From Gnetum montanum (lineage: Eukaryota; Plantae; Gnetophyta), in NCBI GenBank assembly GCA_015680685.1, contig MNCI01001632.1:1-64000 (forward strand): 64,000 nucleotides of DNA. The letters run 5' to 3'. Shown here piece after piece: positions 14,396 through 46,224 of the stretch. Each line of letters begins with the position of its first letter. Position 1 is the first letter of the stretch. The notes beneath the pieces are model-generated. The model was not told where the DNA came from. It did not search any database and saw only the letters and a list, made by a program, of their open reading frames with translations. The translations under genes were made by a program, and so were the position numbers.

Positions 14396-17300
14396 ATCAA
14401 GGTTGCTATAATGTTTGAAGTGTCAAAATTAACAAAAATCTTAACATTGATGCAAGTTTTGGCAAAAGTAAAGGCATAAAGTGGGGTCCACAATCAAAAA
14501 ATTTAAAATTTTGAAAACTAGATTTTTTTCCATCCAAAACCAATGTGAACTAGAGTTTCCCCCTTTTTCCTTAATGGACTTATAGTTATGGTGCACTGAA
14601 TTGGTAGTTGGGGTTTCATTTAGGTTTTAAAAGGGCTTTATATGTTAGATTTTGTAATTTTTAATCTTAACTATCATTCTCTAGAAATAGTGAATTGGAG
14701 GAGAGCTCTCATAGAGATTCTTGTGACAGCCACAACTACTCTTCAGCATGGAAGCTTCCCATCTCCCTTGTAGCCAACATAGAACTCTTATTTTTTCCTA
14801 ATTTTCATCTTCCTCAATGTTGAGCCTACCATGGCACCCAAACAAAGAGGAGGAAAGAGAAAAAATCCTATAATTTAGATAATGGATGAGTGTTCAAGGG
14901 AGTTTTCAAAGGTTTGTAGGCTTATCTCTATCCACACCTCATTGTCACTACTCCAAGGTAAGCAATTATACCTATTTTTGCCTTTGTTTTTTGTGATTTT
15001 TCTAGTTTTTTGCTTTCTAGATGTTGAGGTTGTTCTTTTAGATAGACCACTATAGAGGAATTAAAGTGGAATTTTGATGAAATCCCATCCCTTATTTTGG
15101 TTGCCCCCATGCAGATCTATAGTTTTTTTTTATCACTTTAGCCTTTTTACATTAGATTTTGAAAATAGGGCTTGCTATTTTATGTTTTATTTTCTCAAAA
15201 TTTTGGTGTATGTCCATTTTTTTTAGTTCTAGGCCTTAGGATTTGTTAAAATTAAATTTTAACAAAATCCTACCCCATTATTTTGATGTTAATTTAATTG
15301 GTTTTTAATGGTTTTGGATATTTCAACCATTTTAATGGCTATGTGAAATTTAGGCTTTGCAATTTTTGAAGTTTTGCTATGAAAAAGCAAGCAAGGTTGT
15401 GTATTTGTTTCTTGGTGAAATAGCTATACATTTGTAAAATTAAATGTTATGGGTTTGTATCCCTTTGTTTAATCTTTTTATGGTTGTTTTCTCATTTAAT
15501 TTTTCTTTGAAATGACAAAGTTATGGATGTTGTCCTATCGTTGCATAGTTAGGTTGTTTATGCTAATTTTATAATTTCATGTAGATTTATGAAATTTTTA
15601 TAAGAAAATGGTAAAAAGTTTTGCTATTTTTTGGTCATGGTTACATAGGCTTCAGCTTCAGCTTTCGAATGAAGTGAAATCACTCCAATTGGACTTAAAA
15701 TGAGTTTTTATGAATTTTTTAGTATGGCTATGTGAACCAAGGCAAAACACATAGTTGTAGTACATGACCCAAAATAGAAGTTGTTGATATGCTTAATTTT
15801 TCTTTTTTAAAAAGAGTAAAAGTTTTTTCTATTTTAAATAAGTTTATACTATGTTTTCATGGATTTTTCTAAGTTTATCATAGTTTTTCTAAATTTGTGC
15901 ATAGTTTAGATGTTTTTTTTTCCAAATTTATACATTCTTTCCATAATTTAGATGATTTTTCTAAATTTATGCTTGATTTTTCCGAAATTATGCATAATTT
16001 AGATGATTTTTCTAAATTTATGCATAATTTAGACTAAGATATAGTTTTGGCTATAAAGGCTATAAAACATGGTAATAATGCTTTTATGGAATTTCTCAAG
16101 CTAATTTAGATAAACATCTAAGAGCTCTTTCCAAAAGCTAATTTTACCTCTAACTTATGAAGTTTTTTCTAAATTTGTAAAGAAATTCAAATTGTTCAAG
16201 ATTTAAGGATAATGTAAGTTTTCAATAATGTTTTCTTGTTTAATTACTTAGACTAATTTAATAAAACACCTTACAACCTTTTACATAGGCTAATTTCACC
16301 TTCTACTAGCTATTTTGTCTAAATTTTCTAAGTAATACTAATAGGCCACAATGTTTTTACATTGAAAGGTTGTAATAGTGCCTTTTTGTATAATTCCTTA
16401 ATCCAATTTAGATAAATATCTTAGAGCTTTTTACAAAGGCTAATTTCACCTCCAACTAAATATTTTGTCTAAACTTGCTAAGTAACTCCAATTGGTTATA
16501 ATGTTTTTGTTTGGTTTCATACAGGGTCTTCTTGAGGCCTATTATCATCATAGTGGAGTTGGTTGACATTTTTTGCTACGTTGGTCATCCAAATACCAAT
16601 AATCCATCACAACATGCCTTTTGGGAAGCTCTCATTGTAATTTTGGCCTAGGGCAAGGGACTTCCTTGCCTACCTCTTTAGGAACTTTAGTGTGATGTTG
16701 TGGTCACACTTGTTCATGGATGTAGTTAGGGTTGTTGTGGAGACCTTATTGCCTTAAGCATCTAGACTAATTAGTAGGTATATTATTGATAAGCTACCAC
16801 CTAAGATTGCATGGGGACCAGTAGAGGTCATAAGTTCACACTACCTTATGGAGATCTAGTCAATGCTAGAGTATAGTCAATATAATGCTAATAATACTCT
16901 GAAGGTGGCACATAGAGCCCACACATTATTCCAAAATCCACCTAGCACCCTGTATCATCTACAAGGGTAAACATGATTATTGTAATTTTTTTATGATTTT
17001 TGCTTAATTACCTTACTTAACATCATTAATTTAACTTCTTGTAGGTACAAGGTTAATGATCAAGGCTTGATCATTAATGATCAAATTTTGGTAGTGCCTT
17101 AAATTGATTTGGATGAATTCACCAAGAGTTTCCAAATTAGAGCTATTGTGTATCAACAGTTAAGAGGATACTTTAATGAATACACCCATTGGTTTAACCT
17201 TATATACAAAAAGTGTAAGGATGATGCAATGATGCATAGCTGGTGGGTAGATACCAGTAACATAGATCAAACCCTTGTAGCTGGAACCTCTGCACTATAG

Positions 17301-18451
17301 AAGAAAAGTAAAGGTGAACATATAGCTTCTAGTGTTTTATGGTTCTAAGTGTTTTATTGCTTTTCTTGGTTGTTCAAATTATTCATATTACTTCTAACCT
17401 TTGGTTATTACTTTGTAGGACCTTCCACCTTAGCTGATGTAACTATACCACTTTTGCATTTGCGTCATGAGTATACCCTCATCCTAAAGTTTGATGACCT
17501 AACATTAGTATAGGAGTGGCTAAAGGGACAAGTGCCTAGATATGTTCAAGAAAACATCTAGCATGCTAGTTTGCTCAATGTATTTATGGGACCTATTCCT
17601 TCCATTCTTACTACAAAGATGTTGTATGTTATCAACTCCTTTGATGAGGAGGGTGGTAGCTTTAGCACCAACATTAGTAGTGTTATAGTGTGCATTGATG
17701 TAGGTGTTAGCCTCTTTCATGATCTGTTTAGTGTCATTGCTGATGGGACCAAGGTTCCCACCAGGACATTGAGGGAATCAAGTCATCACGAGGAAGTTCT
17801 AAAGTGGCTTGGTGCCAGCACGGGCCACTTTGAAATTTTGATGGATAGCTTTATGACTCCTAATGTAAAGGAATCATATCCTTTGTTTTGTTCTTGTGCA
17901 TTCCCCAAAATGCTATCACAAAAGAAGGTAATTGGCCTAGCACAAGGATGGATCTCTAAGAAGGTCTTAATCAATGACATCAAATTTGGCTACTAGGCTT
18001 TGATAGGAAATCGTTAGACTTTGTGTTGACACCTCTAGAATAATCCATATGCACTTTGCATTTTTCATATGTTATCTAAAGAGGTTTGCAAAGATTCTAG
18101 TGGTGTATAGGAATGGATGATGGGTTTCCAAAGGCCTAAGCCAACTTTCTAGGCCTTGGATAAAGCACACTTATCCAATAGTGTAGGCCTAGAACTCACT
18201 AGAGGAAATGGATAAAACATTATCAATCATCACTAAGAATATTAATGTTAGAAAGTACAAGTTTCTTGATAATACTGATGATGATGAGCCACTTTTTTTT
18301 CCTACTAGTGTTTAGGATGTCAAATGATGGTGCATGAAGGTTGAAGGGATAACTAGAGAGAAATTCAAGAGGCCTATGGAGGAGGCACCCCCAACATCAA
18401 ATCAACGTACCCTAAAGAAGCTTAAGTTTAAGCTTAAGCCATCATAGTAGG

Positions 18452-19990
18452 TGTGACGATGGAAAACGTCGATCGTTGGAAATACCAAATAGAGTTCCAT
18501 GTACATAGTTCCAACCCTAGATCTGTGTGAGGGCCATGCTGAAGAAGATGAATTCGAGGTGCCCTGAACGGTCTTGTTGATCAGACAGGGACTTAATCAA
18601 TAAAATTTTGTAATAACCAGGTGGCAAAATGGTGATTTAAATGAGGAAATATGATATCGTTAATCCCAGAGGTAACGAGAGTGATGTAAATGATTCAAAG
18701 AGATTGCAAAAATCTATATAGATAGGATGCAATAAACTAGATTTAAAAAGTGTGCAATCCCAAGATCTGGGATTTAGCTTATGAACAAAATATGTTGGAT
18801 ACAATGATTATAGGCAGACTTCAGTTTATACGAAGCACGTGCCAAGAACAGGAAAGCTATTTAAAGATAAAACAAGCAAAGGTCGATCTACCTTGTTCTA
18901 GCCAATCTGGGCGCAAGGGAGTCAGACCCGAAACAGAATGTCCGCTAACTAACTATTTCTGATCAAAATTCTTGTCAATCATCTTCAATGTTCTTACAAT
19001 TGTCGATCCCCTTTTTGCTTTCTTATCAATCTTTGCCAAACGTTTTTGACAATTGCCAATGAAAGAAAATTGCTCACGGAGAAAATTTTTCCAATCAAGA
19101 TAATTTTTTTTTTTGCCAACCCCTTTTTGATCCTTGTCAACTGGAGTATTTATAAGGTTAGGGTTAGGAAAAAAATGTGGTTTAGATGATGCATGTCCTG
19201 AACCTACAAAATTCCGTTGACTTGATGTGTTTGTGTTTGAAGCTAGCAGCGCTATGCTACATTACACTCTGAAGCGTAATGTGTCATAAACTACTTTTGC
19301 TGGAGCTTTGGCAACAAACTGTTCTATGATTACACTGTAATACGCTAGAGAGTGTATTGTGATGTATGAACTACTGATGCCTGAATTGTGTTATCTCTAT
19401 TGTTACTTGTATTACGTTGTGTCATGCTACATTACGTTGCATAGAGTAATTCAACGTAAGATAGTGAACCTACAAAAAATTGAAGTGTTGTCGCTGTGCT
19501 TCCCTTGTTTTTGTTCAGTATTTCTAGGGTTTATTATGCTACACTACATAATGTAGTGTAATAGGCCCTTAGCCGAAAAAAGAAAACTTGCTGAGATGTG
19601 CGACATGTTGCAGATCTTTGCTTGAGCCTTGAGATTTTACTGAACCATTGAGATCTTCAAATTTTGCAATCTCCGTTGTTGTGACTAGATGGACTGTCTC
19701 CTTGTATTACGCTGTGTTACGCTACATTACAATGCATTGCATAACATGGCATAATCCGTTAAAAGTTAAAATTTTTGAAGCATAGCTAACTTACAAAGTT
19801 GAAGGCTTGCCATTGTGCACCCCTTGTCTTGTTCTATCCTCTGGAGTCTATTATGTTGCACTGCATAGTGTGGCGTAACAAACCCTTAGCCAAAAAGAGA
19901 ACTTGCTAAGCCACAACTTGTCATAAATCCTTGCCTGAGTTGCAAGATTTTGCTGAACTGTTGAGGCCTCGAAATTTGCATGGTGTTTCA
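18452..19990 (-). repeat. 3' LTR of B (1539 bp)
   Basis: Colinear with 36077-37622; differences are almost all transitions. Confidence 0.96.
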
Positions 19991-20005
19991 ATGGTCCCTC
20001 TTTGT
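19991..20005 (-). promoter_or_regulatory. Polypurine tract of B
   Basis: The - strand reads ACAAAGAGGGACCAT immediately before TGAAACACC; equivalent tracts at 7505 and 58013. Confidence 0.8.
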
Positions 20006-21210
20006 TGATGTTTAGAGGGCTTACCCAAAACATGTTTACAAAGAATATGAAACACTAGAGAGGTAAAAACACCAACAACATCCGTCAGCAACTGCTCAGA
20101 TGTTGCTCTATCAAACCTGGATGTGTGAAGGTAGGAGGAGGAGAATAGGAGGGATCTTAAAGAAGTGAGAGGAGGGAGGTTCGAGGAAGACTCATGCATG
20201 TGAATAGGAAACTTTCGCAAACAAGTTATTAGGCGTCCTTTCATGGGTGTGTTTGCGAGAGGTTACGTTGCTATACTGCATATGAAGGGCTTACATGGAT
20301 GAGTTGTGTTATGCCTGTATGGCCTGGATGAATTTTTTTACATCCATTTTTCCTAGCTTTTCCATTTTTCTTTGAGAGTGCAACTTACATTCCACGAGGC
20401 GAGTTGTGTTATGCCAGTTCATGGATATGATGGTGGGAAAGAATTGATTATATGCTCACATCCTATACAAACAAAGAAGAGGGTAAAGGCAGTTGTAAGG
20501 ATAAGGGAAGGAGGAAGTGAAGTAAGGTATCTGATGGAGGGAAAGGTAGGGTTTGCACTCCCAAGTAGTTAGGCTAGTCTGAGTAGCCACCTCAGAATGC
20601 CATGACACCTCACCTCCTAGTGAATGCATTCTCGATCAATCCCATCGTAGCAAGTAACTTGCAAAACATAATAGAGAACAAAGAGCAAAAGCAATCTTCC
20701 TAATCGCTAGGGAGGCTGTTGAAACAAGTGTCGTCCAAAGTGAAAAGGAGAGTGTAGGCCATAAAAAAGGGACCATAGCAAGAAGCAAGGGTCCCTATGT
20801 TGATGCCATGATTTATGAAGTTATCATCAACAGCCAGATTCATCTTGCTCAAATGATTGGACAAAGAACCAATCAGATGAATTTGCTAAGCTAGAGTCTA
20901 GTGGCAACAATGGGTGGAGGCCATCGAGGCTATGGATGACCATAGTTTCTTTGGGGTTCCAAGTAGTGAAGTTAACCCCAGGAGTTGCAAATACAGAGTG
21001 GCTATCATAGCAACATCTCCGAGGGGTCAGTAGTATGCCTTCCAGCTTATCCGAGGAATCAGTAGGATGCCAGTGGGGTAGAGGCATTGCGTCTATTCCA
21101 ACATCTTACCCATTCCATATGGTAGGGATGTAGTGCAAGAGTGATCATGATTACTTACTTCATGGATTTTCTATTGATGGATTCGAGTTTTGAGTCCTGG
21201 TTGACTGTTA

Positions 21211-21541
21211 TTGCTGGTTTTAGGTCTCAGAAGACCGTGGTCCCGGTTTAAAGTCTGGGTAGACTGAAGCCTGCTAGTTTTACATCATAGTAGACAGTGG
21301 AAGAGCTAGTTTACGGTCCTAGTAGACTATGTTGTGGGTGTCAATTTTACGTCGTGACCCAGGGACAAGTCTGTGCTAGTTTAACATCTTAGTAGACAGA
21401 TGCTTACCTTGCCAGTTTCACGTCATGGTGGACAGTCGAAAACTTTGCCAGTTTAGCGTCGTGGAAGACACATGCAAGAAATGCTAGTTTTACGTTGTAG
21501 CGGATGTGTACAACATTGCTAGTTTTACATCGTAGCAGACA
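21211..21541 (-). repeat. Hairpin-motif array (10 copies, variable spacers) after the INT stop of B
   Basis: + strand consensus GCYAGTTTWA-NGTC-N6-GACN', with 7-13 nt variable spacers. Confidence 0.85.
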
Positions 21542-21573
21542 TTTTCTACCTTGTGTTTGAGCCGAGTCGACGT

Positions 21574-24500
21574 TTAGATGTGGTACCTCTTTGGATACAT
21601 ATGATTCATTGGGTTCAGGTGTTCGTTGTCGTTGATGTCTGCTAGCCTAAATGCTCCATTTCCATATGCGTTGACAACCAGGAAAGGGCCTTCCCAACTC
21701 ATAGAGAATTTTTTCGCTGGTTCATGGATGGCTTTGAGAACCAAGTCTCCTTTCTTGATTGGTCATTGATGCAAGTTGTGATGATGCTTTTGTTTCTACC
21801 TATCTTGATACCTTTCGATGGTGTTGAGCATCTGGATGCGTTTCACCTCTACTGAGTCTAAATCCACGATCTTAGACTCTTTGTGTTGATTCTCACTTAT
21901 AACCATGGAGAGGACCATCCAAAATGAGGGAATCTATAGTTCCAGGGGCAACCCTGCTTCAGATCCGTAGACTAGGCTGTAGGGTGTCCTATCGGTAGCT
22001 GTTCTGCATGTCATATGATAGGCCCATAGCACATAGAGGATTTTTTCATGCCATCATTTTTTGTTGCTGCTGAGCATCTTCCTGAGTAGATTGATAACCA
22101 CCTTGTTTGTTGCTTCTTCTTGACCATTTGCTTGTAGGTAATAGGATGAGGAAAAAGATTACTTGATACCAAGGTTGTTGCAAAAAGATTTGGTTTTAGT
22201 GCTACTAAATTGTGGCCCATTGTTGGTCACAATAGTCATGGGAAGCCCAAACCTGGCTACTATATTTTCCAAGATAAAATAGCAAACCTATTGAGATGTA
22301 ATCTTTTGTAGGAGAATAGCCTCAACCCACTTCATGGAATACTCGGTGGTGGTGATGATGAAGCTATGTCCTGCGGAAGACTTAGGCGTGATAGGACCTA
22401 TGATGTCTAGTCCCCATTGTTCGAATGGCTAAGTGATCTGTGTAGTATGCAATTCAGTTGGTGACACGTGTATTAGATTTGCGTAACGTTGGCATGTGTT
22501 ACATGTCTTAACCTTGGTGAGGAAATCTCATTCCATGTATGGCCAGTAATACCCTAAGCATCTGATTTTAGCGGCCATGGCTTGTGGGGCTATATGTCCC
22601 CCACATAGTGCTTCATCAACTTTACTAACTATTCATTGTGCTTGGTCATTATTAATGTAGGTTAGCAATACTCCATCAAAAGACTGTCTACAGAGAGTAC
22701 TATCTCCAATGATGACATATTGCCGAGCAATCTTGCAGATTGCATCTTTTTGTGTAGGTGTTAGCTCATGCAATGGTTCGCCATGCAAAAAGTAGGCTTT
22801 AATGTTATCGTACCATTCTAGTGTTCCACCCATGCTTAGAGAAGAAATTTGCGCCACTTGAATGACAGGCTCTGTACATTGCATCATTAAAGTGGGCCAA
22901 GTGACAAACAAATGTGGTGGCATATTTAAGGCCAGTGTGGCTAGTGCATCAGCTATAGCATTTTCATTATGCGACACGTGTTGGACATCAGTTTTCATGA
23001 ATTATTTCAGGAGATCTTTAGCCATATCACAATAGGGATGCAAATGCATAGCTTTGCATGCATAGACCCCTATGATTTGATTAATGATGAGCATTGAATT
23101 ACCTTGGATTTCCAGGTGTTGAACATTGAGTTCCCTGGCTATTAACAATCCCCTGAGGAGCCCCTCGTACTCTGCCACATTGTTCGTACAAGGGAATTCT
23201 AGGCGGTAAGCTAATGGATGAACATCCTCAGGGGAATGCGTAATGATAGCGGCAGCAGTGCCACCTTTGGTAGTCGAAGCTCCATCAAAGTATAACATTG
23301 CTTTGAGGCTTGTCAATATAGGGCTTAAACTACATATTTGTTCATTAGGAAACTCAGGCTCTATTGCGGCTTGATTGTTAATCGGTGATGTTGCAAGCTG
23401 GTCGGCTATCACTTGGCCTTTCATGGAAGATTGGCTAACGTAGTGCAAGTCAAATTCTTCTTTCTAGTAGGCTATCCTATTACTTTCATATAAATTTTTT
23501 GTGATGGCCTGTAGAATGTTTTTTTTACAGATTATATTGACCTGGCTACGGAAAAGATAGTTCCTACATTCCTTGAGTGCAAACACCAATGCTAAACAGT
23601 TACGCTCTACTTCATTGTACCATGTTTTGTATGCAAATAGAGCATGACTTAGGTAGTAGATAGGAACTTCTGACCCATCATCCCTTCTTTGGCACAACAA
23701 CACAGCTATAGACACCTCTAAGTTTGCCAAGTATATGTAGAAAGGCTGATCCCTTTGTGAGGAGAAAATCATTTGCAAATGTAATAGCTCTTTCTTCATA
23801 TTGTCAAATGCACATTGGAAGTTCTTGGTCCATTCGAAGTTAACCCCTTTCTTGAGCAAATGTTGCATAGGGTGTAACTTATCTGTTAATCTTGAGATGA
23901 ACCACCTGATAAATTGCAACCTACCCTATAGCCCATGTAGTTCTTTGAGGTTTGTAGGTGGTGTTAGATTAATGATGGATTTAACCTTATCGGGGTCGAC
24001 TCGAATGCCATTCTCTAATACCACAAACCCCAACATGCACCCATTTTTGACTCCTAATACGCACTTTCTTGGGTTGAGCTATAGGTCATTTTTGATACAT
24101 CGTTAAAGGATTATCTCTAGGTCTTTCGAGTGATCTTCTGACTTCTTAGATTTGATAGCAATGTCATCTACGTAGTCATTCAATCCCTCTAAGAGGTAAT
24201 CACTAAAGATGTAAGTCATGACGCATTGATGGGTTGCTCTAGAGTTTTTTAATCCGAAGGGCATCATGGTGTAACAAAAAGTTCCCCAGGGGATCATGAA
24301 AGTCGTAGTCAGTTGGTGTCCTTGCTTGATACAGATTTGATTATAGCCTGAACACCCATCCATAAAGGATAGTAACACGTGGTCGGCTGTTGGATCGATA
24401 AGTTGGTCAATACTCGGTAATGGAAAGTTTTCTTCAATCGTGGCCTTGTTCAGATCGTGGAAGTCTATACAGATGCATATTCCTCCCATTTTCTTAGAGA

Positions 24501-25044
24501 CAACTATGATGTTCGACACCTAATCTGAATAATCAACTGCATGAATGAAACTAGCCTAATATAGCTTAGTGATTTCATCACACACTGCTAACCCGATTTT
24601 GAGCTTAATCTTCTAGGATTTCTGTTTAAATGCTTTCATATGCGATTCTAAAACTATGTTGTGCTATATTAGCCTTGGGTCTAAACCTGGCATATCTTCG
24701 TATGACCATGCGAACACCGTAATGTTATCTTGTAGCACTCGAGATATATCACTCTGCGTTTGTTGGTCAAGGAGAGAACTAACTTTTAGAGTTTTACTTT
24801 CTCCTTTGTGCGTAACCATAGGGACCTCAGTGAGGGAATCCTCAGTCACATCACCAGCTTCCAGGTCTAGGGTTTGGGCCAAATATTCTAGCTAGTCTGG
24901 AAATACTTCCGATGTTGCAATGGTTATACCACAAAGGGAAGCGTCAGTTCCTATCAATGTGTGATTGAGCTATCTAATACTTTCCCCGTATGGGCCTGTT
25001 AAGGCTAGGGGTGCAAGTAAAGCTACATCCATTTGTGAATTGAC
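21574..25044 (-). pseudogene. pol: pol of B (RT-RH-aRH-INT)
   Basis: YVDD at 24163-24174; FPLPSIDQLID; SGYNQI; RH PIYYLSH; aRH YFDGAS...CTNNVAEYEGL; INT FEQWGLDIIGP and EYSMKWVEA; GPY/F-like WEGPF; stop at 21574-21576. Confidence 0.95.
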
Positions 25045-25062
25045 CTGCAAAAATGCCAAAAA
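25045..25062 (-). promoter_or_regulatory. Putative 3' splice acceptor for the pol exon of B
   Basis: The - strand reads TTTTTGGCATTTTTGCAG|GTC AAT TCA CAA ATG, in frame with RT. Equivalent AG|G sites lie at 11242 (A) and 63789 (D). Confidence 0.75.
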
Positions 25063-25622
25063 TGGAGGTTGTTACATTTTTTTTGTTGACCTATTGAAAT
25101 GATAGAAGGTTTTCTTTTTTTAGTGGTACGTGTTAAAGAGCTGCAAATTTAAGATCCTAGCAGACCGTTACCATATGCGTGATTTGTGAGAAAGCAGTAA
25201 GCCAAATTTCCTAGATGTTAGTGTAAGACTTCTATGCACTATAGTAGGGAGTGTAACGTGGCATGTATAACATGTCGAGACAACTAATTTTTAATTTTTT
25301 GCATATCATAGTTAATGTGACTGGATTACGAGACCATGAGCTACATGTTAGTTTAGGGTCTTTTCGGACCGTAATCTATACAATATCTACAAGATTAATG
25401 TTGCGATCTTCATGCTTCATGTCACATTGACATACCTATGTCTCGAGAAAATTCCACATTGGTCAGGCACGCAATAGTTAGTTTCAACCAATTCATTTAT
25501 AAGTCAGTGATTCATCCTCAAAGTAGACTAGAGATATTGCGAATTTGAATTAGGATATAGCAGAAGGAAAGCAAAAGTAAGGCATGAGCAGAAGATTTTG
25601 CAAAGGTTGTTTAGTCATGACC

Positions 25623-28600
25623 ATGGTACCAAAGATCAAAGGGAAACATGTCAAATTGGCAAAGATTAATAAAGTGTAGGAGAGTTTCCAGTGGGTTGAA
25701 ATGCGGTAGGCTACTCCACTCGCTCGGTAAGTGACATTTTATCGTCCTGCATGATTGTTATTTTTGTTGTTATGGTGTCGCAATTGTACCTATTTCAAAG
25801 ATGTGTATTATGGTGGGCATTGATACCTGGTCACACGGGCTAAGCTATCGTAGTTTGTACTATTACCGCTATCGTTGTTTTTGGAGACAGACCTTGCGTA
25901 CTCGCAAGGGTTAGGACGATCTTGGGCAGTATTGTGCAAACACAATGCATAACTGAAGGAGTCCAGGTACTATACCCTTATGTAGTATGAATAGGATTCC
26001 ATCATCTCACCCATAAATGTTGCATGTTACACTGAGATAATAGGTAGTATTACTTTTATCGCCATTTCCAGGGATAGACCTTGTGCGATTGCAAGGGTTT
26101 GGGTGGTTTTGGTAATGCATTTTCAGCATAACCTACAATTTCCTGGGAGTCAAGGTAATGGAAATTCTAGTGTTATGTAATTAATTTTTGTGCCTCTCTC
26201 CCTTTTTTTTTGTTTTTCTCTTACATCATTAGTATGTCTACATTGCTGTTTCTAATAGAATTCTATTTTATTGTAAAGGATTACGCTAAAGCCTATCCTA
26301 ATCATCTTGGACATTGTGGGCGTTCTGTGTTGTTTACATGTCCCCATGGCCAATGTTCCTCCTCCTCATGCTCGTGTAAAGGTGGAGGCAGTTTGGTTCC
26401 GAAGAGGCACACAAGAGTTTCTGTAGTTTTTGTTACATAATTACAGTGTAATTATTTGGTCGCATTTGCCAGCCGAGACAGTCGCCTCCATTCTGGAGAC
26501 GCTACTAGTTGGATCAACATAGAGCATGTTGATGTTTTTGGTGGATGGCTCAATCGAAACCGTGCAGGTACAAGACCATGAATAGAGTGCCAGGGGTTTG
26601 AGACATTTTTCTTGGATCTAGGATATGCCCAGGTTTAATTGTTATCACGCCTACAACACTCTATTCGTGGCTTGTCATCTTATGACCTACTTCCAAAATC
26701 CACCTGGGATTGTGTATTATGCAAGCGGGTAAGTGCTTCCACGGCGTCATAATACACTAACCATTTTTTTGAATTTGTATCTAATGTAAACAATTGTCTA
26801 CATTCTGTGATGTAGTTTTTTCATCAATAATGATGGTCTCCAGGGTGATATAGATACGTTGTCTATGGCCAAAATGGCCATAAAGGAGTTCACCTCTATT
26901 AGCAATGTACGTGCTGGTGTTATGGGATAACTAGAATTGGAAATCCCACATTACCCTAACTACTATATCAAATTTTTCACCAAGTGCAAAAGGCTCAGAT
27001 GGTTGGATAAGGAGTGGACTTTGGATCGTCCTCTCACTATCATGGACATGTGAGAGAAAATCCCACCGTTTCCTTTGCCTTTTAGATGCGGTAAATTATG
27101 CTATGGTGGTTCATTGTACAATCTTACGAGATGGACACAATGTGTAAAATCATTTTATTTTGCTATATTGTCTAAACCCTTGTTTCATGTTTATAGTTAA
27201 GGAATCACAAGAGATCACGGTTATGGCTTCCAGGCATGAAGCGAGCAGCCTTTGTTTCGTTATGGTGACATAAAGAAAATGCAACATTCGCTCAGCCATA
27301 GTGCAGCCCCAGTTGTCCTAACCAATAACCTATGGGAAGCTAGACTAATGCAGCTATTTTTGGTTGTAACCCCCAACGTCACCGTGGGAAAAATGTTGAC
27401 CCTAGTTAACTCCTTCAGCAAAGAAGCCAAGCATCTTTACATGCGCATGCATAACGTGCATGTAAGTTTTGATATTGACGCTTGACTGTTCACTAACTTT
27501 CTTGGTGTTTCCTTTGATGGCCTTCCAGTAGAAGAAAATTCAATGAGGAGTTCTAAGCACCAAAAGGAGATAGAGGAGTGGCTAGGGGTTAACAAGGAAG
27601 TGAAAGGAATCCCTGCTGATAAAATTGAGCTCGAGGTGGCTCATACCATTTATCCCCTCTTCTGAGCCCACGCCTTCCCCAAGTTGCTTTCCCAGGGGAG
27701 AATCTTTACCATAGAGCAGGCATGGATCATGCAGGAGGTTATGGAGAACGGAACGTGGTATAATTGGGTTAGTTACTTCGCCAAAGGCATGCAGGCTGAA
27801 ATGGTCAAGCTTCAGAAGAAGTTTGAGTACCGCTTCAACGTGCATTTTACCTTCTTTTTAGCTTGCTTTCAGCATTTTTTCGAATTCCTAGTGGTTCAGA
27901 GGGATGGAATCTGGGTGCTACAGGATCATAACCAGATTTCCAAATCTTGGATTTCCTAGATTTTCGACACTACTCGATCATAAGATCCCCCCGAAGGCAT
28001 TGGGGATTCGCTTTCACTTACGACTAAGATTTTGGTGGCACCTCGTACACGAGGCCAGGATAGCATGGGTGGAGCGCTCCCTTCTTTCACCGGTAGTGTG
28101 TCGAGGGGGAAATTCCTTGTAGTAAAAATAGTGGATTCGTCAGTCTAGCAGAAAAAGCCTCGTCTAGCCATGGAGTCCGCTAGTTTGACTGACATAGAGA
28201 GAAAGAGGTTGCAAATTAATTTTCACAAGAATGATCCCCCAACTAGTAAGTAAAGAGATGCATAATTAGTTTATATATTTGTTATGTTGCGTACAGATGT
28301 GGCATCACATAGCATTTGTAAGATTTTTGATTAACTATTTTTTTTAGCAGACAAAAGAAAGAATGTAGAGGAGTTGACCCCTAAAACAGGGGAAATAGTC
28401 ATACGATGTGAAGGAGGGGCCCCAATTTTGAAAAAGAAGGCCCCTGTTAATAATGCAGGTGGCACATAGGTTTCTGTGTGTGAAGAAGAGATGGAAGCAG
28501 AGGACGTCGAAGTCCTTTCAGATGAGCTGGAAAAAAGGGAGCAGCTTGTTGCTGGTAAGTTTAACTTTTCCTTAGAGGGTAGCGTCACATTACGACCATT

Positions 28601-30170
28601 GAGGGTTTTTTTGGATTGAGTTTTGCATTATCGTAATGTCTCAATTGTCCTTTATGTCCATCATACTGTGTCTAACTCATTTTTGTTTGCGTAAAAGGTA
28701 CTTCTAACGCTGGCTTCGTGCCCTTGTCAGCGGCACCCACTCAGCATTGGGATGAGACCCCTGATAAATTTGCCTTTATGGAAGGCATTGCAAAGGATAT
28801 GATGGGCCATCTATAGAGAATCGACCCTGAGATTGGTACGTGAGTGTTATAATGTAGGGATTGTTGACATTATGATATTGTATCTTTTTTTATGTCTCAC
28901 TATTATTTTTATGTTACAGGATCTCGCCTCAGATGGGATCACAAAGAGCCCGTTGACTTGGATATTGCCCCTAAACCCTCATCAGAGCTGACCGAAGTGC
29001 CATGCAGCCTTTACGACGAAATGAGTAAATGTGCGTTACGCTCAACCCACTCTTTATGGGAGTGCCAGAACATCAACGAAGCTCTTTGGAAGAGGTTGTA
29101 GAAGGAAGAAAAGGAGAAGATGTTCCTAATCAGTAGGGTTGAGGACCTGGAGTCTCGAAATAAATTTCTACTAGCTTGAGAGACCAATGATGAGAATTGG
29201 TGGACAGTTGTAATTGACTACACTTGCTATTGGACAGTCATCAGAAACAACATACAAGCTAGTCGTGAACTCATTGAGAAATGGATGCAAATGAATCTCC
29301 TAGCCCAGAAGAACCAAGACTGGAAGGATTATAGCGTGATGGTCCAAGAATGGGGCTAGACACAGAAAGATCATAAGCACGTGTATAAGCGAGAATGTGT
29401 TGCCTACTACCAACATTACAAGGATTCTACTATTAAAGCATGGTCCCTTCAACTATTTCTTGATGTCATCGGTGCTTCTAGAGCATACGAAAAGTTTCAA
29501 GAGCAAGTGACAGTAAGTGCTTCCCCAGAGAGGGAAATAACTTTCCTTGGTCGGGAGACCACTGTCTCTTCCTTCTTTTCTAAACTGCCCTGATGGACTC
29601 CTATGGAGAAGGGAAAGGTTAAGGTTGGAACTGATCTAGGAGATGGCGTTTGGTCTAAGCTTACCGAGGACAAGATCATGCAATGCCTGTGGGTTGGTTT
29701 GGAACAGATTCCTTTCGCAGCTAACGCAAGACCATCATAGGTAAGTTGTAGGCCTATTGCATTCTTGTTATGCGTAGTCTCGATGAAAATACTAATGTGT
29801 GCATCATGTAAAACTATAGGATTGGAACAAGGAGGATCCTCATGAGGATGAGCGTAATGGAGATGATGGTCAAGGAGAAGAGAGTCTTCATGAGGAGGAG
29901 CATAACGAAGATGATGGTCCTCACGAAGAGGATCTCCATGAGGAGGCACATAATGAAGATGATGATCCTCATGAAGAGGATATCCATGAGGAGGCATGTA
30001 ATGAAGATGATCAAACTCGCGGTGAGAAATCCCATGAGGAAGAGCCCTGCAGAGAGGACCCTCGTCATGAAGAGACATCCTACAAAGAAGGTCCTTACAA
30101 GGATGATCTTCATGAGGCAGAGGTGGAGTTGGATGACACAGGTGGAAATGATAGCAAAGGGGATGTGTAG
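25623..30170 (+). pseudogene. Antisense 8-exon accessory gene of B, ~1130 codons: FCP1/NIF-like HAD domain, plant-transposon domain, coiled coil, acidic tail
   Basis: Exons 25623-25726, 26279-26728, 26816-27090, 27197-28245, ~28351-28554, 28698-28835, 28920-29740 and 29820-30170. Donors gtaagt (x5), gtaaat and gtacgt; AG acceptors after T-rich tracts; scattered CAG>TAG stops and a few frameshifts. Confidence 0.85.
29830..30120 (+). repeat. ~15/45-bp coding repeat giving an acidic His-rich tail (GDPHEEAHNEDDDPHEEDIHEE...)
   Basis: Repeated catgagga(g/t) units. Confidence 0.85.
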
Positions 30171-30289
30171 CATGGTGATATTAGCCTAAACATCTTGTTG
30201 TAATGAAAAGGAATAAAGAATAGAGTTCTTGGATCAATTTGATTGTAAGAAAAAAAATTGGAAGAAAGTGTATCATTAGAAAGGTTACG

Positions 30290-30702
30290 TGTTTTAGGCC
30301 ACTGCGGGATATTAGTAGTTTAAGGCCATTTTGGGCCAGTCCATTGTAAGTGTAAAAGGATAAAATAAATAAAAATTGAGTTTCTAGTTTTAGGCCATGG
30401 TGGGCCATAAATAGTTTAAGGCCATTTCAGGCCATATCTTCATAAGCGTAAAGGGGTAAATTACATTTGCCAGTTTTAGGCCGTAGCGGGCCGCAACTAG
30501 TTTAAGGCCATTTTGGGCCAAGCCATCGTAAGCGTAAGAAAAAAAATAAAATTGATAGTTTTAGGCCATAGTGTGCCGTAAATAGTTTAAGGCCATTCCG
30601 GGCTAGTCCATTGTAAGCGTAAAAGGATAAAATAAATAAAAACTGAGTTGCCAATTTTAGGCCGTGGCGGGCCATAAATAGTTTAAGGCCATTTCGGGCT
30701 AG
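30290..30702 (-). repeat. Hairpin-motif array after the gag-pro stop of B (paired motifs in ~90-120-bp higher-order units)
   Basis: AGTTTWAGGCC-N6-GGCC repeated ~10 times. Confidence 0.85.
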
Positions 30703-30806
30703 ATCGTCATAAGCATAATAATGATAATGTAAAAAGAAAGAGCGTAAACTATGTAATAATAAAAAACATGGACTGATACAACATGTCACGCTAACATGTT
30801 AATTTG

Positions 30807-33800
30807 CTAGCTCTGTAGTTGTTTCTTGATCATTTTTAGGTTTGGCGACACGTATGGGCAAGGAGGCTTATTATAGAATTCCTCTACGCTACCATCTTCT
30901 CCTTGGAAGGGTAGTTCAGCCCAAGTCAAGCTTTCATTGGCTACTGTGTTAGCCTATTCAACTATTGGGATAGGAGTTTGATCTTTAGAGAATTCAACCT
31001 CTAACCCTTGTTCCATTTCTACATTGTTAACCGCTTAAGGGATCATCTTATCACCATGGATGATCACTTCCCCTCCCACATAGGACAAATGGATCTCTTG
31101 ATGAATGGGTGATGAGACTACTCTTAATTAAGCTAACCAAGACCTCCCTAAGATTAGGTTGAAGTCGGGCATCTCCTCAATGACGATGAACACTGCATTT
31201 GTGGGGAATTGATCCACTACTACAAAGTTGATGTGTACCATTCCCTTAACTTGCACTCTTGGCCCATTAAATGACTTCAAACATGACATTGTCATGGGAT
31301 TAATCTGGTCAATAAAACCCAGTTTGTCCACTATAGGGAATGGAATGACATTGGCAGCGGCCCCGTCATCTATGTGTACTCTCCGGATTTTGTACTGGCT
31401 GACTTGGATAGTGATGAACATGGATGTTGTTGTCACCTGACCCTTTTCTGGATCATCCTTAATGGATTCTTCATGAAATGTCAGTTGGGGAGATCTTAGT
31501 TGTTCAGCAGTGTGAGGAAACATAATCGAATGGATTGCTTCTTCATCTGCTGGCAACTTTTTGTCCACCAGTATGGACGTTAGCATGCGAACCATGACCT
31601 CATGATGCTTTTAGGATGTCATCAACAAGTCATACAGACTCAGCATTATTTTTCTATTTGAGAGCCTGCTTGACTTGTGTAAAAGAGTCAAGGAGATCAT
31701 GCCCATGATCTAGTTGTTTGTTACCCTTCTCTTCTTTCATTTGTCCCAGGAGACGGATCTCTTGGGGTAGAATAGTTTCTGGTTGAGGATTGTATTTTCT
31801 TGGGCAGGGAGAAGGTGTCCGTATTTGCGTAACATTGCCCTTTTTAGAAGAAGGTGGGGCCAAGGGCACCAAGGCAAGGGATGTAGGCCTAGGGAATCCC
31901 AATGTAGGGTGATCCTTGGCTACCTCAGCTATCATGCACCCTTCTCCTTTCCTATTAGGTTGTGATTGGGGCGTTGACTTAGATGGTTGTCCCTACATAA
32001 TAGGAATAGCTGATGGCTTTGGCACCCTGATGACAAAGGGTACCTTAGGTATGGGTGCGGGTTGGGCTACGGCTTTACCAATAGTAGGCTATGGGACGAT
32101 AGTAGGAGATGGGACTCAAAGGACAAAAGGTTGTTGTTGAACCACACCCATTGATGTTGATGGGTTTGTCGTTTGAGATGAGCAAGGAGATACACATAGG
32201 ACAAAGGGATGCTTTGGCTGTGCTTAACCATCGCCTTCCATACCTACCACATTGATATTGTACCCTACATTATTAGCATTTAACGGGTCTTGGTACATGT
32301 GCATGGATTGGTTTTCAGGATGGATCAGGCTATTGCTGTCTAAGATTAGTTTACCTTGATTGATCATGTATTGAATGTCATCTTTCAACACCCAGTAGTA
32401 ATCCATGTCATGACCACACAGTTGGTGATAGTCATAGAAGCGGTCCAGCCTAAAGTTTTTTGGGACTAAGGGTTCATTCGGTAGGGCCAAGGACGGATTC
32501 TTGAGCAACTCACAATGTCATCTATGGCACTTCAAATCCTCCTTGGATACCTTCTTATGTTGGATGTGGCTAGTTCCCAACAATTTCTTTAGAAGTTCTA
32601 AAGGCTTTATAGGTAGGGCCGCGTATTTTGAATGGTCTTTACGCTCAAAATTAGGGTTCGGCTACAAAGGTGCTTCAAGGGTGAAAGGAGTTTCTGGATC
32701 GATGCTGTTTGAGCTAGTTGTGGGCTCAGCAAGCTCCGTAGATATTTTCTTGTTGTTGTTTTTCTTCTTAGCCCCCTCGGCAACCGCTGTTACTGTCATT
32801 GTCGTAGCTTTTCCTTTGTTCTTACCCTTGTTGTGGGAATTCTTTTAGACCACATACGTTGGATCCTTGCTAGCCTCTGCCATGTCTTGGATGCTCTTAG
32901 CCTGAGTGAAGGCTTGGCTGAGGGAGCGAGGAGCGAGGTAATATAACTTAGACTTAATAAAGTCGTTAACTACCCCCTTGAAAACTACCAACAGATGGCC
33001 CTCCACGATGGGTTCATAGATTTTGTTCAAGGTGGTGCTCCACTGCTATATAAACTTTTGAACTGACTTGAGCGGGTCTTGCTTGACTCCCATGAGCTGG
33101 TCCAGCATGACTTCTGGTTTCATGTTGTACTTGAAACAAGTCACGAACTAAGTTAACAGCTCTTCCAAAGTTGAGATGGAAGCACGCAGGAGTGCTCGAT
33201 ACCAATCTAAAGCTTTACCTGTTAGGGACATAGCAAAGACACAGATGATAGTATGTGGCCATTGTTGCAATAACAATGACTCTGACCTAAAAGTAACTAA
33301 ATGGGTGTTGGGATCGCCTTCCCCATTGTATTTTGTAAAATGGGGAAGTGGCATCCCAAGAGGTAATGACAAAATGGACACTGCCAAGCTAATAGGATCT
33401 TCATGGTAAAAATCCATGACTTGTACTATGTCAGAACCAGCATCCTTGAGGTGTTTAACTTCCTCAGTAAGGGTCTAGATAAGCTAGAAGGATTTATCTA
33501 GACCTGTAGATGAAGAGGTCATTTGTGGAACAGCAGGAGGAGCCACGCTGGGTGGCAGAATAGGGGCGGCAACTTGGCCGATGGGTGATGCTATCGAAAT
33601 TATCCCTGTAGGAGGTGCTACTTGTGGCATCCACCACCTGGTAGGTGGCATGGATGGGGCGATTTCCATTGGCTGTGCCATTGGATATGTTGTTTGCATT
33701 GCTAGGGGCATAGACAATGACCCTGTAGTAGGGTTTAGTGCCTACTGAACTTCGTTTTAATGATGGAGGAGATGGGACATCTATGTAGGATGCACAACGA

Positions 33801-34230
33801 GAGACATGTTTGGAGCCCACCATGCTGTAGTGGGGGGCCCTATCATGTGAGTCAGGATGAATGTAGGTGTTGTATGTAACTACAAAGTAGGTATTGCGTG
33901 TAGATACGATGACATGGGCGTAGGTGTATGGTGAGATAGATTAGCTAACTACACTTGCTAAGGAATGATTTGTAATGGGACACCACCTGAGAGGGTAGTT
34001 GGAGAGAGAAAATGTAGCTGGGACGAGTGCGGTACTTGGTTAGTATTAGACAATGTCAAGGACATGGTGACCATGAACAACAAATTTATGCGAGACGTTG
34101 TGGAGGGAAGGGCCACAACCAAATCAGCATGACTACTTCCCTCAGAGTGGGAATCTAGATCAACCTGCCCATGATGAAGCGCTTCATCATGGAACAACTC
34201 CTCTCATTATTCTGTTGATGTCCTAGCCAT
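30807..34230 (-). pseudogene. gag: gag-pro of B
   Basis: Gag PHFTKYNGEGDPNTHL...FAMSLTGKALDWY; Tat-type Zn motif YDYHQLCGHDMDYYWVLK; protease VHIDDGAAANVIP...FNLILGRSWL. The start and end positions are approximate. Confidence 0.9.
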
Positions 34231-35480
34231 TGAAACACCACAAAATTTTAGGTCTTGACATCTCGACTGCATATTTTTCTAAGTGTCAAAATGATGACAC
34301 TTTTAACACCTTGTAACGCTATGCTATTATGCACTGTTACATGATGTTACGCTGCATAGCGTAGTGTAGCGTAACACACTGTTACACGCTATTACACTCC
34401 ATAGCGTAGCGTAACACCCTGTCACGCGCTGTTATGCACTGTTACGCTACATAGCGTAGTATAGCATAGCATACCACCCTATTACACTACGCTGTTATGC
34501 ACTGTTACATGATGTTAGGCGCTGTTATGCTCCATAACATAGCATAACACCCTGTTACATGATGTTACGCTACATAGCATAGCGTACTGTAGCATAGTGT
34601 AGTATAACACTTTGTTATGCTATGCTGTTAAATGCTGTTACATGATGTTATGCACTGTTACGCTCCATAGCGTAGCATAACACCCTATTATGCTACGCTG
34701 TTACATGCTATTATATGATGTTACGCGCTGCTATACTTACATTACGCTGTTACGCACTGTTACATATTGTTACGTGTTGTTACACGCTGTTACACATTAT
34801 TACCTACCGCACTATCACGTGGCACCAGATCTGCATTTTGGGCTAACCCTAGTCTTATAAATGCCTCTACGCCCTCTTTTTTAAAAAAGAAGAGGGGAGG
34901 GAAGAGAAAGGGGAGCGAAGAACTTTTTCTTCAAGGGAAAAAAACATTTTGGCATTTTCAACATTTGGGCACTTAGCTCCATGGGTGAACGAGACCCAGA
35001 GCACACCACACCGACAGAAAGGCACATTACATGGTATACTGTGATCACTGACCCAGGAGGCATAGTTTATCATAGTGAGTACCAGATTTCACAAATTGAC
35101 ACCACTGAGGTTGTGATTCTGCTCCTACTATTCCTATTGTACACTTTCTATATCGGTACCATTTTTTAGGGCAATGTATCTTTCTATTCAAACTCTCTTT
35201 TGGCTGATTACAACATTTTTTTGGCATTGTTAAGCATTAAATCATTTTCATTGACCTATTATGCACTTTAGCATGTTTCTACTACTATGCACATTACATT
35301 TTTTCTTATTATTGGCAAAAAGGTTATTGTATACCGATTAAGTCCCTGACTAATCGACCAGACCGTTCAGGGCACCCTGAATCCATTTTCTACAACATTG
35401 CCCTCGCGCAGATTCGAGGTTAGGTTATGCACCCAAAGACCTCTCGGTGTTTTTAGTGATCGACATTTTCTAATGCTATA
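34231..35480 (+). mobile_element. Solo LTR of a related Tat family, inserted in B in the opposite orientation
   Basis: Starts TGAAACACCACAAAATTT; perfect TSD GCCAT at 34226-34230 and 35481-35485; its ends are reverse-complement homologous to the 60610-61723 LTR and to the B LTR; contains (GTTAC/ACGCT)n low-complexity sequence at 34310-34800. Confidence 0.9.
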
Positions 35481-36038
35481 GCCATCAGCATTTGATCTAG
35501 GATCCACTATTGTTGATCTATCAAGGATACAATGGTGTTTGGCAAAGGACTAAATTCCTTCCCATTGCAGTATATGAACTCGTATTCTCGTTTCTCTTTG
35601 ATTTCTTGTGGGTACATGGGAAGATTTGCTACAAGTTTAGCACAGAGGAAATTGTAATGTTCCCTATGCTGAGCATGTCCCTTAGGCTCCTTGTTTTGGA
35701 GCCTGAGGGATTAGCGTGGTCACACTGAACTGGTTGGTGGTTTGACCATAGGAGGCGTAGCTTGCAAAGTCCAAGGATTCTCGAGGTTGGCAATGTTAAC
35801 AACGGTGGTTGATGTAGCCATTCTCTATGCAGTTCAAAAGTAATGATGACAAGAATAAAGATCACAAGGGAAAAGGTAAACTAAGGTGAGAATTGGGCTT
35901 TCTACCCTACAGGATTCCAAAGGAATCATCAAAGCGACCGATCTACATCACACAATCTCGTAAAAAACCACGGAGGTATTATGTTTACGTCAATCGATAA
36001 TGGGTACTGACAGCTTACAGGACTACCCATAAAGTGTG

Positions 36039-36067
36039 GATCAGAGGTTCAGGCCCTCCTTCTAGCG
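36039..36067 (-). promoter_or_regulatory. Primer-binding site of B, tRNA-Asn type, extended
   Basis: The + strand gatcagaggttcaggccctccttctagcg resembles the 3' part of plant tRNA-Asn(GTT) as recalled; it lies 9 nt from the LTR. Confidence 0.8.
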
Positions 36068-36076
36068 TAGGAAAAT

Positions 36077-37622
36077 TGTAACAATGGAAAATGTTGGTCA
36101 CTGGAAATACCGAGCAGAGTTCCATGTACACAGTTCCAACCCTGGATCCGTGCGAGGGCTGTGCTGAAGAAGACAAATCCGAGGTGCACTGAATGGTCTT
36201 TTTGATTAGACAGGGACTTACTTAATCAGTAAAATTTTATAATAACTAGGTGGCAAAATGATGATTTAAATGAGGAAATATGATATCCTTAATCCCAGAG
36301 GTAACGAGAGCGATGTAAACGATTCAAAGATATTGCAAAAATCTATATAGATAGGATGCAATAAACTGAATTTAAAAAGCGTGCAATCCTGAGATCTAGG
36401 ATTTAGCTTATAAAAGAAATATGTTGGATACAATGATTACAGGTGGAATTTGGTTTAAATGAAGTGCATGCTAAGAACAGGAAAGCTATTTAAAGATAAA
36501 ACAAGCAAAGGTCGATTTACCTTATTCTAGCCAATCTGTGCGCAAGGGAGTCACACCCGAAGTAGAATGTCTGCTAAGTAGCTATTTCTGATCAAAATTC
36601 TTGTTAATCACCTTCGATGTTCTTACGATTATCGATCCCCTTTTTTCTTTCTTATAAATCTTTGCCAAAAGTTGTCGACAATTGCCAATGAAAGAAAATT
36701 GCTCACGGAGAAAATTTTGCCAATCGAGAGAAATTTTAAATTTTTTGCCAACCCCCTTTTGATCCTTGTTAACTGGAGTATTTATAAGGTTAGGGTTAGG
36801 AGAAAAATTTTGTTTAGATGACATGTGTCCTGAAACTACAAAATGTCGTTGACTTCATGTGTTTGTGTTTGAAGCTTGCGGCACTACACTGCATTACGCT
36901 CTGAAGCGTAATTTGTCGTAATCTACTTTTGCTAGAGCTTTGGCAACAAACTATTCTATGGTTACACTGTAATACGCTAAAGAGCGTATTGTGACATATG
37001 AACTGTTGATCCCTAAATTCTGTTATCTTTGTTGTTTCTTGTATTACGTTGTGTCATGCTACATTACGTTGCATAGAGTAATTCAACATAAGATAATGAA
37101 CCTACAAAAAATTAAAGTGTTGTCATCATGCTTCCCTTGTAACTTTTCAGTCTTTCTGGGGTTTATTATGCTACACTGCATAATGTAGCGTAATAGGCCC
37201 TTAGCTAAAAAAGGAAAACTTGCTGAGATGTGCAACATGTTGTAGATCTTTGCTTGAGCCTTGAGATTTTTCTAAACCATTGAGGTCTTTAAATTTTGCA
37301 ATCTTCGTTGTTGCGAATAGATGGACTATCTCCTTGTATTATGCTATGTTACGCAACATTACGCTACGTTGCGTAACACGGCAAAATACGCTAAAAGTTA
37401 AAATTTTCGAAACATAGCTAACTTGCAAAGTTGAAGGCTTTCCATTGCGCACCCCTTGTCTTGTTCTATCCTTCAGAGTCTATTACGTTGCACTGCATAG
37501 TGTGGTGTAATAGACCCTTAGCTAAAAAGAGAACTTGCTAAGCCACGACTTGTCACAAATCCTTGCCTGAGTCGCAAGATTTTGCTAAATCGTTGAGGCC
37601 TCAGAATTTGCACAGTGTTTCA
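36077..37622 (-). repeat. 5' LTR of B (1546 bp)
   Basis: Colinear with 18452-19990. Confidence 0.96.
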
Positions 37623-38914
37623 GTAGGTATTCATAGGTATGCTTTATTTAATTTTTAGTATTTCATGTTCTAAATTTTATGGCTACAATATGATTTTATG
37701 TGTTAACTAGTTTTCTATGTGCTATGCTTGTAGATAAGTATCAGGTTATAGTAGCCGAAGCTACTACAGAGGTAGAACAAAGGCATGCAGAAGAGACACT
37801 TCTAAAGCAACCTATGTTTGAAGGACTTGTTAATGCTAGTGTAGATAATCTAAATGTCTTGTTTGATGAACTGGTATTAGGTATCTCTTCCATCATCATC
37901 CTAGAGGAGGAAGAGGAGGAGGAACCAGGGACACCTATGCCTCACTATGTTTTCCATATTTCATTAGCTCTCTTTGGTCATCATCATAACCTTTCAATGA
38001 TTGTTATGCTTACAGTAGTTCCTGAGTCACCAATGGAAGCTTCCATCCCTAAGTTTCATGTGAAACCATGGGTAGAGACTCTAGACAAAGTGGAGTTCCT
38101 ACTTGGGATGGCTAATGAAATCATCAATCAATTGCATTAGGTTGCAGTTAAGATAGGTAAGGATTTTATTTTATGTGCTTTGGTCATAGGCTTTGTTTGC
38201 ATTATGTTCATTTTAGGTTTTGTCTTATGATTGTATTTTATTCTTTATGTAGTATTGTTAGTGGAGTTTGACTCTAGTAGAGAGATGGAGGTAGACTCCT
38301 TGCCTAGACTTGTCTCTTATGTTTTTAGTATACTTATGAAGTTGTATGATACTACCACTGATTTGGAAATGTCATGTGCAAAAGCTTCATGCAAGCTAGA
38401 GAGGTCCAATGAATTTCTATGGAAGGAAATTATGGCTTTAATGGAAAAGGCTTAAAGGAAGGAGGATATGATTTAGTATCTCTAAGACTATAAAGCCTTT
38501 GTAAAAGGCCAAGTTGCTAACTTAAGGGAGTTATGGACCAAGGAGATCAGTTAGGCCCACTATTGGCATGTCATTCAAGACAAAGTAGCAATCCTATAGG
38601 AGATGGTAGAGTGACAAATGTAGATGGGCCTCATCTTCCAAAATGTTGAGGACTAGACTACACTTGAGTTCTGGAGTGGGGCAAGACACAAAAGGTCTAG
38701 AAGCATCAATATAAGGTCAATCATGGGGCCTACCTAAAATGTCTTAAGGAAGATTTGATTGAATGAAACAAGAGAGATCTATTCATTTAGAGGATCTAGG
38801 TAGAGAGTTCTTATCAACTTTCTGAATGTACTCTCAAGGTGAAGCAATCCCCTACTCTTCATATCACCACAATTGTAGGTGAGACCTCTACAACTGATGC
38901 TACTCATGAGCCTC

Positions 38915-39748: not shown

Positions 39749-39920
39749 TATCCCCACAACTAAATGAAAACTCATCCTTGAGTTTCATACAAAATGGTGA
39801 AAGGTATGGGATTATTGAATAACAAGATAATCATTGCATCACAATGGTGTTTTATTGCAATAGAATGATGACACATTACAAGAATCAAAATTAGAAACAA
39901 AAAAAAGGATGATGGAGCCA

Positions 39921-46100: not shown

Positions 46101-46205
46101 ACTAATGTCACATGCACAAGACATGTTGGAGATGCATGTGTGACTTGTTACTCCTTGTTGAAAGATAGAGCATGGACATAGTGCCATCTTAGATAATAAG
46201 CATCA

Positions 46206-46224
46206 TCCCTAGCAATGGTGCCAA
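46206..46224 (-). promoter_or_regulatory. PBS of C (tRNA-Asp type)
   Basis: TTGGCACCATTGCTAGGGA directly after the 5' LTR. Confidence 0.85.

Follow-up and report, generated by a model that had tools for sequence, protein, structure and literature searches.

Introduction

Ogre and Retand are Tat elements in which gag, protease, reverse transcriptase (RT), RNase H (RH), a second RNase H and integrase follow one another in that order (PMC6317226), and in Ogre an intron between protease and pol is spliced (PMC4408406, citing Steinbauerova 2008). The known extra open reading frames (ORFs) of Tat elements are placed ahead of gag or behind pol, and what they encode is PMD, Transposase_28 or coiled coils (PMC4408406, PMC11963269). 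The surveys sought long ORFs on the upstream or downstream side of the polyprotein (PMC6317226), and such a search would pass over spliced genes that lie antisense in the protease-RT spacer. Elements with such a gene would appear in annotation as two unrelated halves. We know of no biochemistry for PMD or Transposase_28, the accessory-gene domains of Ogre, Retand and Athila, and the job of these accessory genes is therefore still a question.

Here we describe two related elements, A and B, from Gnetum montanum (assembly GCA_015680685.1, contig MNCI01001632.1, positions 1 to 64,000; this whole stretch of 64,000 nucleotides is called the window). In the window, decayed LTR retrotransposons are nested within one another.

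Structure of the host elements

Element B is a 19.2-kb Tat/Ogre-type Ty3/gypsy LTR retrotransposon on the minus strand (18452-37622). Its 3' LTR (18452-19990, TG..CA ends) is 88% identical to the 5' LTR (36077-37622), with a K2P of 0.127 separating the two, and a 5-bp target-site duplication, GTAGG, flanks the element at 18447-18451 and 37623-37627. From the 5' LTR the order is gag, protease, spacer, RT, RNase H, second RNase H and integrase, all on the minus strand. The gag region (32100-33600; Pfam Retrotrans_gag, E 5.4e-6) is broken by stops and is followed by an aspartic protease (30900-31610) with 45% identity to that of A and a Pfam Asp_protease match at E 0.002, below the cut-off. Beyond a spacer of about 5.9 kb (25045-30900) lies the pol region (21600-25044), also broken by stops, with Pfam matches to RVT_1 (5e-13), RT_RNaseH_2 (2e-18), RVT_3 (3e-8) and rve (2e-10). 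The second, archaeal-type RNase H (RVT_3/RNase_H) is at 23002-23463, between RH and integrase, and a scan of the spacer for RNase H motifs found none. B therefore has the LTRs, the target-site duplication, the order gag-PR-RT-RH-INT and the second RNase H between RH and integrase by which Tat elements of the Ogre/Retand kind are recognized. A TGG start adjoining the 5' LTR was looked for and was absent, no tRNA gene was found, and Pfam gave no PMD match in the accessory gene or the element.

The spacer of B ends in a pyrimidine tract and AG (25046-25045) directly before the pol frame, and it is likely an Ogre-type intron; no donor site was found for it, and no splice joint of the spacer was seen in four RNA runs across the whole region. 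The spacer carries an accessory gene, antisense to the element on the plus strand, an odd position that the original prediction had not stressed, and a tandem array (30276-30723, units of 85-96 nt). An array of 29-nt units in A (47717-48180) shares with it the core GTTTAAGG; both sit in the spacer just past the protease, and similar units recur near 7650, 11420 and 59000.

Element A is an older relative, and B is inserted within its accessory gene. The layout of A is the same, with the accessory gene in the equivalent place between the protease and RT regions. Its gag and protease are at 48427-50765 (minus strand; tblastn E 7e-47 and 1e-43), interrupted by a fold-back, and its pol at 7773-11172 (minus strand) is preceded, as in B, by a pyrimidine tract and AG. 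The accessory gene of A is on the plus strand, with predicted exons 1-4 at 14831-18446 (14831-14957; 16525-16966, with the NIF-like domain; 17045-17313; and from 17419), and it continues beyond the B insertion at 37628-38900 (tblastn with B exon 7, E 8e-9). The anatomy of A and B agrees with the original prediction, which had placed the accessory gene within an LTR element; a DIRS/non-LTR element or a divergent two-gene element was rejected, because gag and protease lie past the accessory gene.

The remainder of the window holds further insertions. A third LTR element (38915-47064; LTRs 83% alike) is nested in the A spacer and has a minus-strand gag (Pfam E 2e-5) and a helical ORF; it gave no match to RT or integrase and is likely non-autonomous. 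Near-perfect fold-backs at 12609-13234 and 49196-50187, the latter in place of part of the A gag, each adjoin two of the window's four Ns and are probably assembly artefacts. Pol regions of the same type occur on the minus strand at 53157-56441 and 59204-63821, and within the window no accessory gene or NIF match was found beside them. A weak RT-like match on the opposite strand (2581-2839, plus; 35-37%) is probably another old element.

The accessory gene

In B the predicted exon 1 (25623-25726, plus strand, as are all the exons) begins with ATG, encodes a basic N-terminus and ends in a GT donor in phase with exon 2; a counterpart exon is present in A. Exon 2 (26279-26728) holds the NIF/HAD-like domain (about 26298-26705) and four TAG stops. 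Exon 3 (26816-27090) is conserved with A, and no NIF similarity was detected in it. Exon 4 (27202-28245) encodes a conserved domain with no assigned family, 29-32% identical to A. Exons 5-8 (28351-30190, boundaries approximate) encode a charged linker, a helical region conserved with A and an acidic low-complexity tail; a coiled coil in this region was judged by eye and not computed.

Introns 1-3 of A and B are GT..AG and lie at matching codons, including the one after exon 2 (26729-26815 in B, 16967-17044 in A). Phase agrees between the two copies for introns 2 and 3, and for intron 1 only if exon 1 of A is frameshifted, the first donor of A being otherwise out of phase. The accessory coding parts of A and B match by tblastx (E 1e-38), and blastn between them gave no match. 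In protein-guided alignments, which favour codon positions 1 and 2, second positions are 53-71% and third positions 25-42% identical; the corresponding values for RT are 79% and 38%. Conservation between A and B is slightly higher in exon 2 (38-39%) than in exons 3-4 (25-32%). Since the gene occupies the same place in A and B, with matching introns 1-3 and similarity at the protein level only, it was under selection. Both copies in the window are now broken pseudogenes.

The family is large: at 80% likeness over 471 bases, two DNA runs, which carry different organism codes, gave 3358 and 4012 contigs. Among 40 listed family differences 21 are synonymous, against 35% expected for transitions (p 0.018), an excess that is weak because the listed differences mix private and lineage changes. 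Exon 4 of B had no match in Pfam, the PDB or the Atlas, where it gave only leads (0.83-0.88) to plant hypothetical proteins, one of them with DUF1985 on 23% of members. A word-based protein search returned nothing for B exon 2, nor, among longer proteins, for exon 4, and the Atlas likewise yielded nothing for the NIF exon.

Homology of exon 2 to NIF proteins

The peptides on which the original prediction was built can be read from the DNA. In B a single frame from 26280 gives PILIILDIVGVLCC, VWFRRGTQEFL, FLLHNYSVIIWSHL, ILETLL and YHAYNTLFVACHLMTYFQNPPGIVYYASG, with four in-frame TAG stops, one of which had been written as "(Q)" after VWFRRGTQEFL; the exon terminates at 26728. In A (16526-16967) PIIIIVELVDIFCY starts at 16538, a frameshift follows near 16640, and the reading from FWPRARDFLAYLF to FQNPPSTLYHLQG at 16641-16967 contains two stops. 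The two exons are homologous (tblastn E 5e-12; 37% identity over the aligned part; score reached by 0 of 2000 shuffles). A stop in the same column of A and B was rejected as a sign of shared truncation, both being TAG after ATC, a context presumably prone to methylation-driven mutation.

Membership of the NIF/HAD group, as had been proposed, is upheld by several searches. NIF (PF03031) was the top Pfam match of B exon 2 (residues 8-75, E 6.2e-4), at 19.9 bits short of the gathering cut-off of 21.8 bits; two pieces of A had no Pfam match. A profile of A and B run against 1.84 billion proteins matched three: two tandem-repeat proteins, P0004 and P0005, dropped as tandem-repeat artefacts, and P0006, a NIF protein (Pfam 1.9e-19) aligned over positions 2-100 at E 1.1e-4. 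P0006 was also the sole result of a word-based search with the mixed profile. A degenerate DNA pattern for domain residues 126-142 retrieved 96 metagenome loci, of which one, L035, matched A and B well past the pattern, over 100-140 residues. Its product is a NIF protein with DLNGLL, absent from the protein collection by exact look-up. The other 95 loci were dropped as chance, including L093 (20 residues, E 0.002), and among viral contigs the 41 and 45 pattern matches yielded none that was confirmed.

The following shuffle, tile and hhalign results are not independent of the searches that yielded P0006 and L035, because they reuse proteins found via A and B. With the pattern region excluded, B scored above all 2000 shuffles against both P0006 and the L035 protein; A did so against P0006, and 5 of 2000 shuffles reached its score against the L035 protein. 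When the window was cut into 1278 six-frame tiles, a profile of these NIF proteins singled out four, and every one falls on A or B, in exon 2, with E 1.8e-8 to 7e-4 (next-best tile E 1). The hhalign comparison gave 95.8% and E 7e-9 over 130 columns.

In a PDB search with the A and B profile, UBLCP1 (E 0.09), the only NIF chain matched, came behind three methyltransferase chains (E 0.03-0.04), and phmmer with B alone returned nothing under E 0.5. An unbiased fold prediction reached a pLDDT of 35. A second model, for which the alignment was biased by two added NIF proteins, reached 52 and starts with a strand-helix-hairpin-helix-strand order; Foldseek on this biased model ranked CTDNEP1, Tim50 and Scp chains at positions 1-11, with a best E of 0.024 and none at E 0.001.

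On these several lines the accessory gene is judged to encode a NIF homologue, probably of the HAD fold, over exon 2. The proposal had gone further in two respects that found no support. Exon 3 had been included in the domain, and the match spans exon 2 only: A and B share a homologous exon 3 (score equalled by 0 of 2000 shuffles), and this exon shows no resemblance to the C-terminal part of two NIF proteins, where 629-1612 of 2000 shuffles reach the score. FCP1/SCP had been named as closest kin, and the nearest sequences are instead the DLNG-type NIF protein of L035, P0006 and UBLCP1. A DLNG-type NIF gene is the likely donor, and capture of the domain from a host is plausible. In L035 the intact NIF gene (857-2065, plus) faces an ORF of 658 aa (2312-4288, minus), which had no Pfam match and whose motifs, as we read them, presumably recall a DNA transposase. 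NIF genes may travel with other mobile elements as well.

Catalytic residues

HAD enzymes require DxDxT/V, a Ser/Thr, a Lys and acidic residues in motif IV (PMC8069645). The anticipated loss of catalytic residues is seen in both lineages and in most of the family. The first Asp of motif I is retained in B and replaced by Glu in A, and the motif IV Asp-Asp of UBLCP1 aligns with Ala-Cys in B and Ala-His in A, in line with the original reading that the motif I Asp is kept in B alone and motif IV DD is lost in both. The second Asp of DxD is Val in A and in B. The motif II Ser is retained (WSH in both), and B and most of its family keep this Ser together with the first Asp. Neither copy has a lysine in the 20 residues preceding the motif IV strand, and the phosphate pocket is therefore incomplete; the exact motif III column varies by alignment.

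In the family comparison on exon 2 (3358 and 4012 contigs), which favours B-like contigs, 40 of the 43 differences reaching at least 50% are listed, and none of those 40 touches a motif I codon (four in all) or the codon for the motif IV Ala. The losses are common to lineages saturated at third positions and no majority difference is listed, which makes them a family trait and not decay. In the likely donor group the second motif I Asp is already Asn, and those fungal NIF proteins that carry DXNXT count as pseudophosphatases (PMC13216928). The DLNG-type group may itself be non-catalytic.

Expression

Four RNA runs placed 187, 60, 481 and 182 reads on 24300-31700; being partial and mostly less than 90% alike, these come from relatives and not from B. 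At 31645-31686 a stretch of 40 bases matches an unrelated, abundant transcript, and this match reveals which runs are stranded. In two stranded-like runs the strands had summed depths of 9.6 versus 70.6 and 5.2 versus 13.5 over the accessory region, favouring the gene's strand under the usual convention, and of 14.0 versus 12.5 and 1.5 versus 5.1 over pol. Two pile-ups in the first of these runs may be copies of single molecules, and the second leans the same way over pol as over the accessory region, so that the bias toward accessory-gene transcription is suggestive at most. No accessory-gene splice joints were seen in four RNA runs (whole region) or two (exon 2), and run X13 had no reads on exon 2.

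Proposed function

We consider it fairly probable that the NIF domain is a non-catalytic binding or docking module in an antisense-encoded accessory protein that serves the element. The spacer would be retained in full-length, genomic RNA and spliced out for Pol, as in Ogre, and its presence in the full-length RNA would allow the accessory gene to be inherited; the antisense orientation would let the introns of the gene survive reverse transcription. Transcription would start from the gene's own promoter near the RT end and give its own antisense transcript. The predicted product, with a basic N-terminus, a pseudophosphatase, an unassigned domain, a helical region and an acidic tail, could be a nuclear scaffold. 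Its NIF groove would dock a host protein, perhaps a phosphorylated one, that takes part in transcription, RNA processing or silencing. Yeast Tim50, which has the NIF fold, is inactive and binds peptides (PMC8346121). A more specific form of the proposal, in which the captured pseudophosphatase, encoded by a spliced antisense gene within the gag-protease/pol intron, is a phospho-reader that sets the balance of spliced and full-length RNA via host transcription or silencing machinery, is conceivable but doubtful; if true, it would be a retroelement-encoded regulator comparable to the accessory proteins of complex retroviruses.

Several other readings were weighed against the binding module. The fold could be purely structural, or a scaffold for nucleic acid or partners, with an old active site that binds nothing. 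The change of three catalytic positions and an exon 2 conservation little above that of exons 3-4 are in keeping with this, but B and most of the family still have the first Asp and the motif II Ser, and we regard it as unlikely. The earlier suggestion that the domain specifically reads RNA polymerase II's phosphorylated C-terminal domain (CTD), tuning elongation or splicing of the long spacer, draws on the NIF membership, on the Scp1-type chains among the top 11 for the biased model and on the presumed need of the element to balance spliced and unspliced RNA. The sequence neighbours are, however, UBLCP1, described as a proteasome phosphatase (PMC5451543), and DLNG-type proteins, and with the lysine missing and the phosphate pocket partly gone in both copies this idea seems to us quite improbable.

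A passenger fragment of a host gene, useless to the element, or a chance resemblance to NIF would fit two broken copies and the lack of a close protein relative in three database searches. It is largely refuted by the fact that both lineages, saturated at third positions, have kept the domain and its introns; the independent homology lines (Pfam, the A and B profile, L035 and the NIF-profile tiles) speak against it too, leaving it very improbable. An atypical yet active phosphatase has in its favour the first Asp and motif II Ser of B and the reported activity of human TIMM50, which is classed as a pseudophosphatase (PMC13216928). Both lineages nevertheless lack the metal-binding Asp of motif IV and the Asp that acts as acid-base, and A has Glu at the nucleophile, so that we give activity hardly any credence.

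Comparison with known systems

Ogre and Retand resemble B in having Gag-protease apart from RT, a second RNase H between RH and integrase, a 5-bp target-site duplication, a length of about 19 kb, tandem repeats and an accessory gene (PMC6317226, PMC4408406). The extra ORFs described in them, however, are found upstream of gag or in the interval from pol to the 3' LTR, whereas the gene of B lies in the protease-RT spacer and has predicted introns and a NIF-like domain; B has no equivalent of Ogre's PMD-bearing extra ORF, which sits at the 5' end or, in antisense, at the 3' end. NIF does not appear in the extra-ORF domain table of PMC6317226 (Additional file 4), which covers domains present in at least five elements, nor among those that section 12 of PMC9289625 names. 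In the parts of the literature consulted we found neither a NIF domain reported from an LTR element nor a gene described in the protease-RT spacer. Accessory genes in Tat elements are known; the NIF cargo and the position of the gene appear to be new.

With DLNG-type NIF proteins the domain shares a hydrophobic strand with Asp, basic-basic..FL, V.IWS, YxAxNTL and FQNPP in the same order and spacing. It differs from them by Val and not Asn at motif I +2, Ala for the motif IV Asp, the missing motif III Lys, an unrecognizable C-terminal part and its fusion into a transposon protein. The enzymes UBLCP1, CTDNEP1 and Scp1 keep DxDxT and motif IV, unlike the A and B domain, and yeast Tim50, a precedent for a non-catalytic NIF protein, is mitochondrial. 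Arabidopsis MAIL3 and MAIN/MAIL1-PP7L combine a transposon-related domain with a phosphatase domain in the control of silencing (PMC7156037, PMC5418596), an analogy only, since they have the PPP fold and are host genes, and exon 4 here gave no PMD match. The AlkB/2-ODD cargo of the orchid Ogre-like Gypsy_Pa_2799 is likewise a regulatory enzyme domain of the host that became fixed in a giant Tat element, but it keeps its catalytic residues and is active (PMC9289625), whereas the NIF domain has lost them. The NIF fold has a known groove and chemistry, so that binding and activity of this accessory protein are directly testable.
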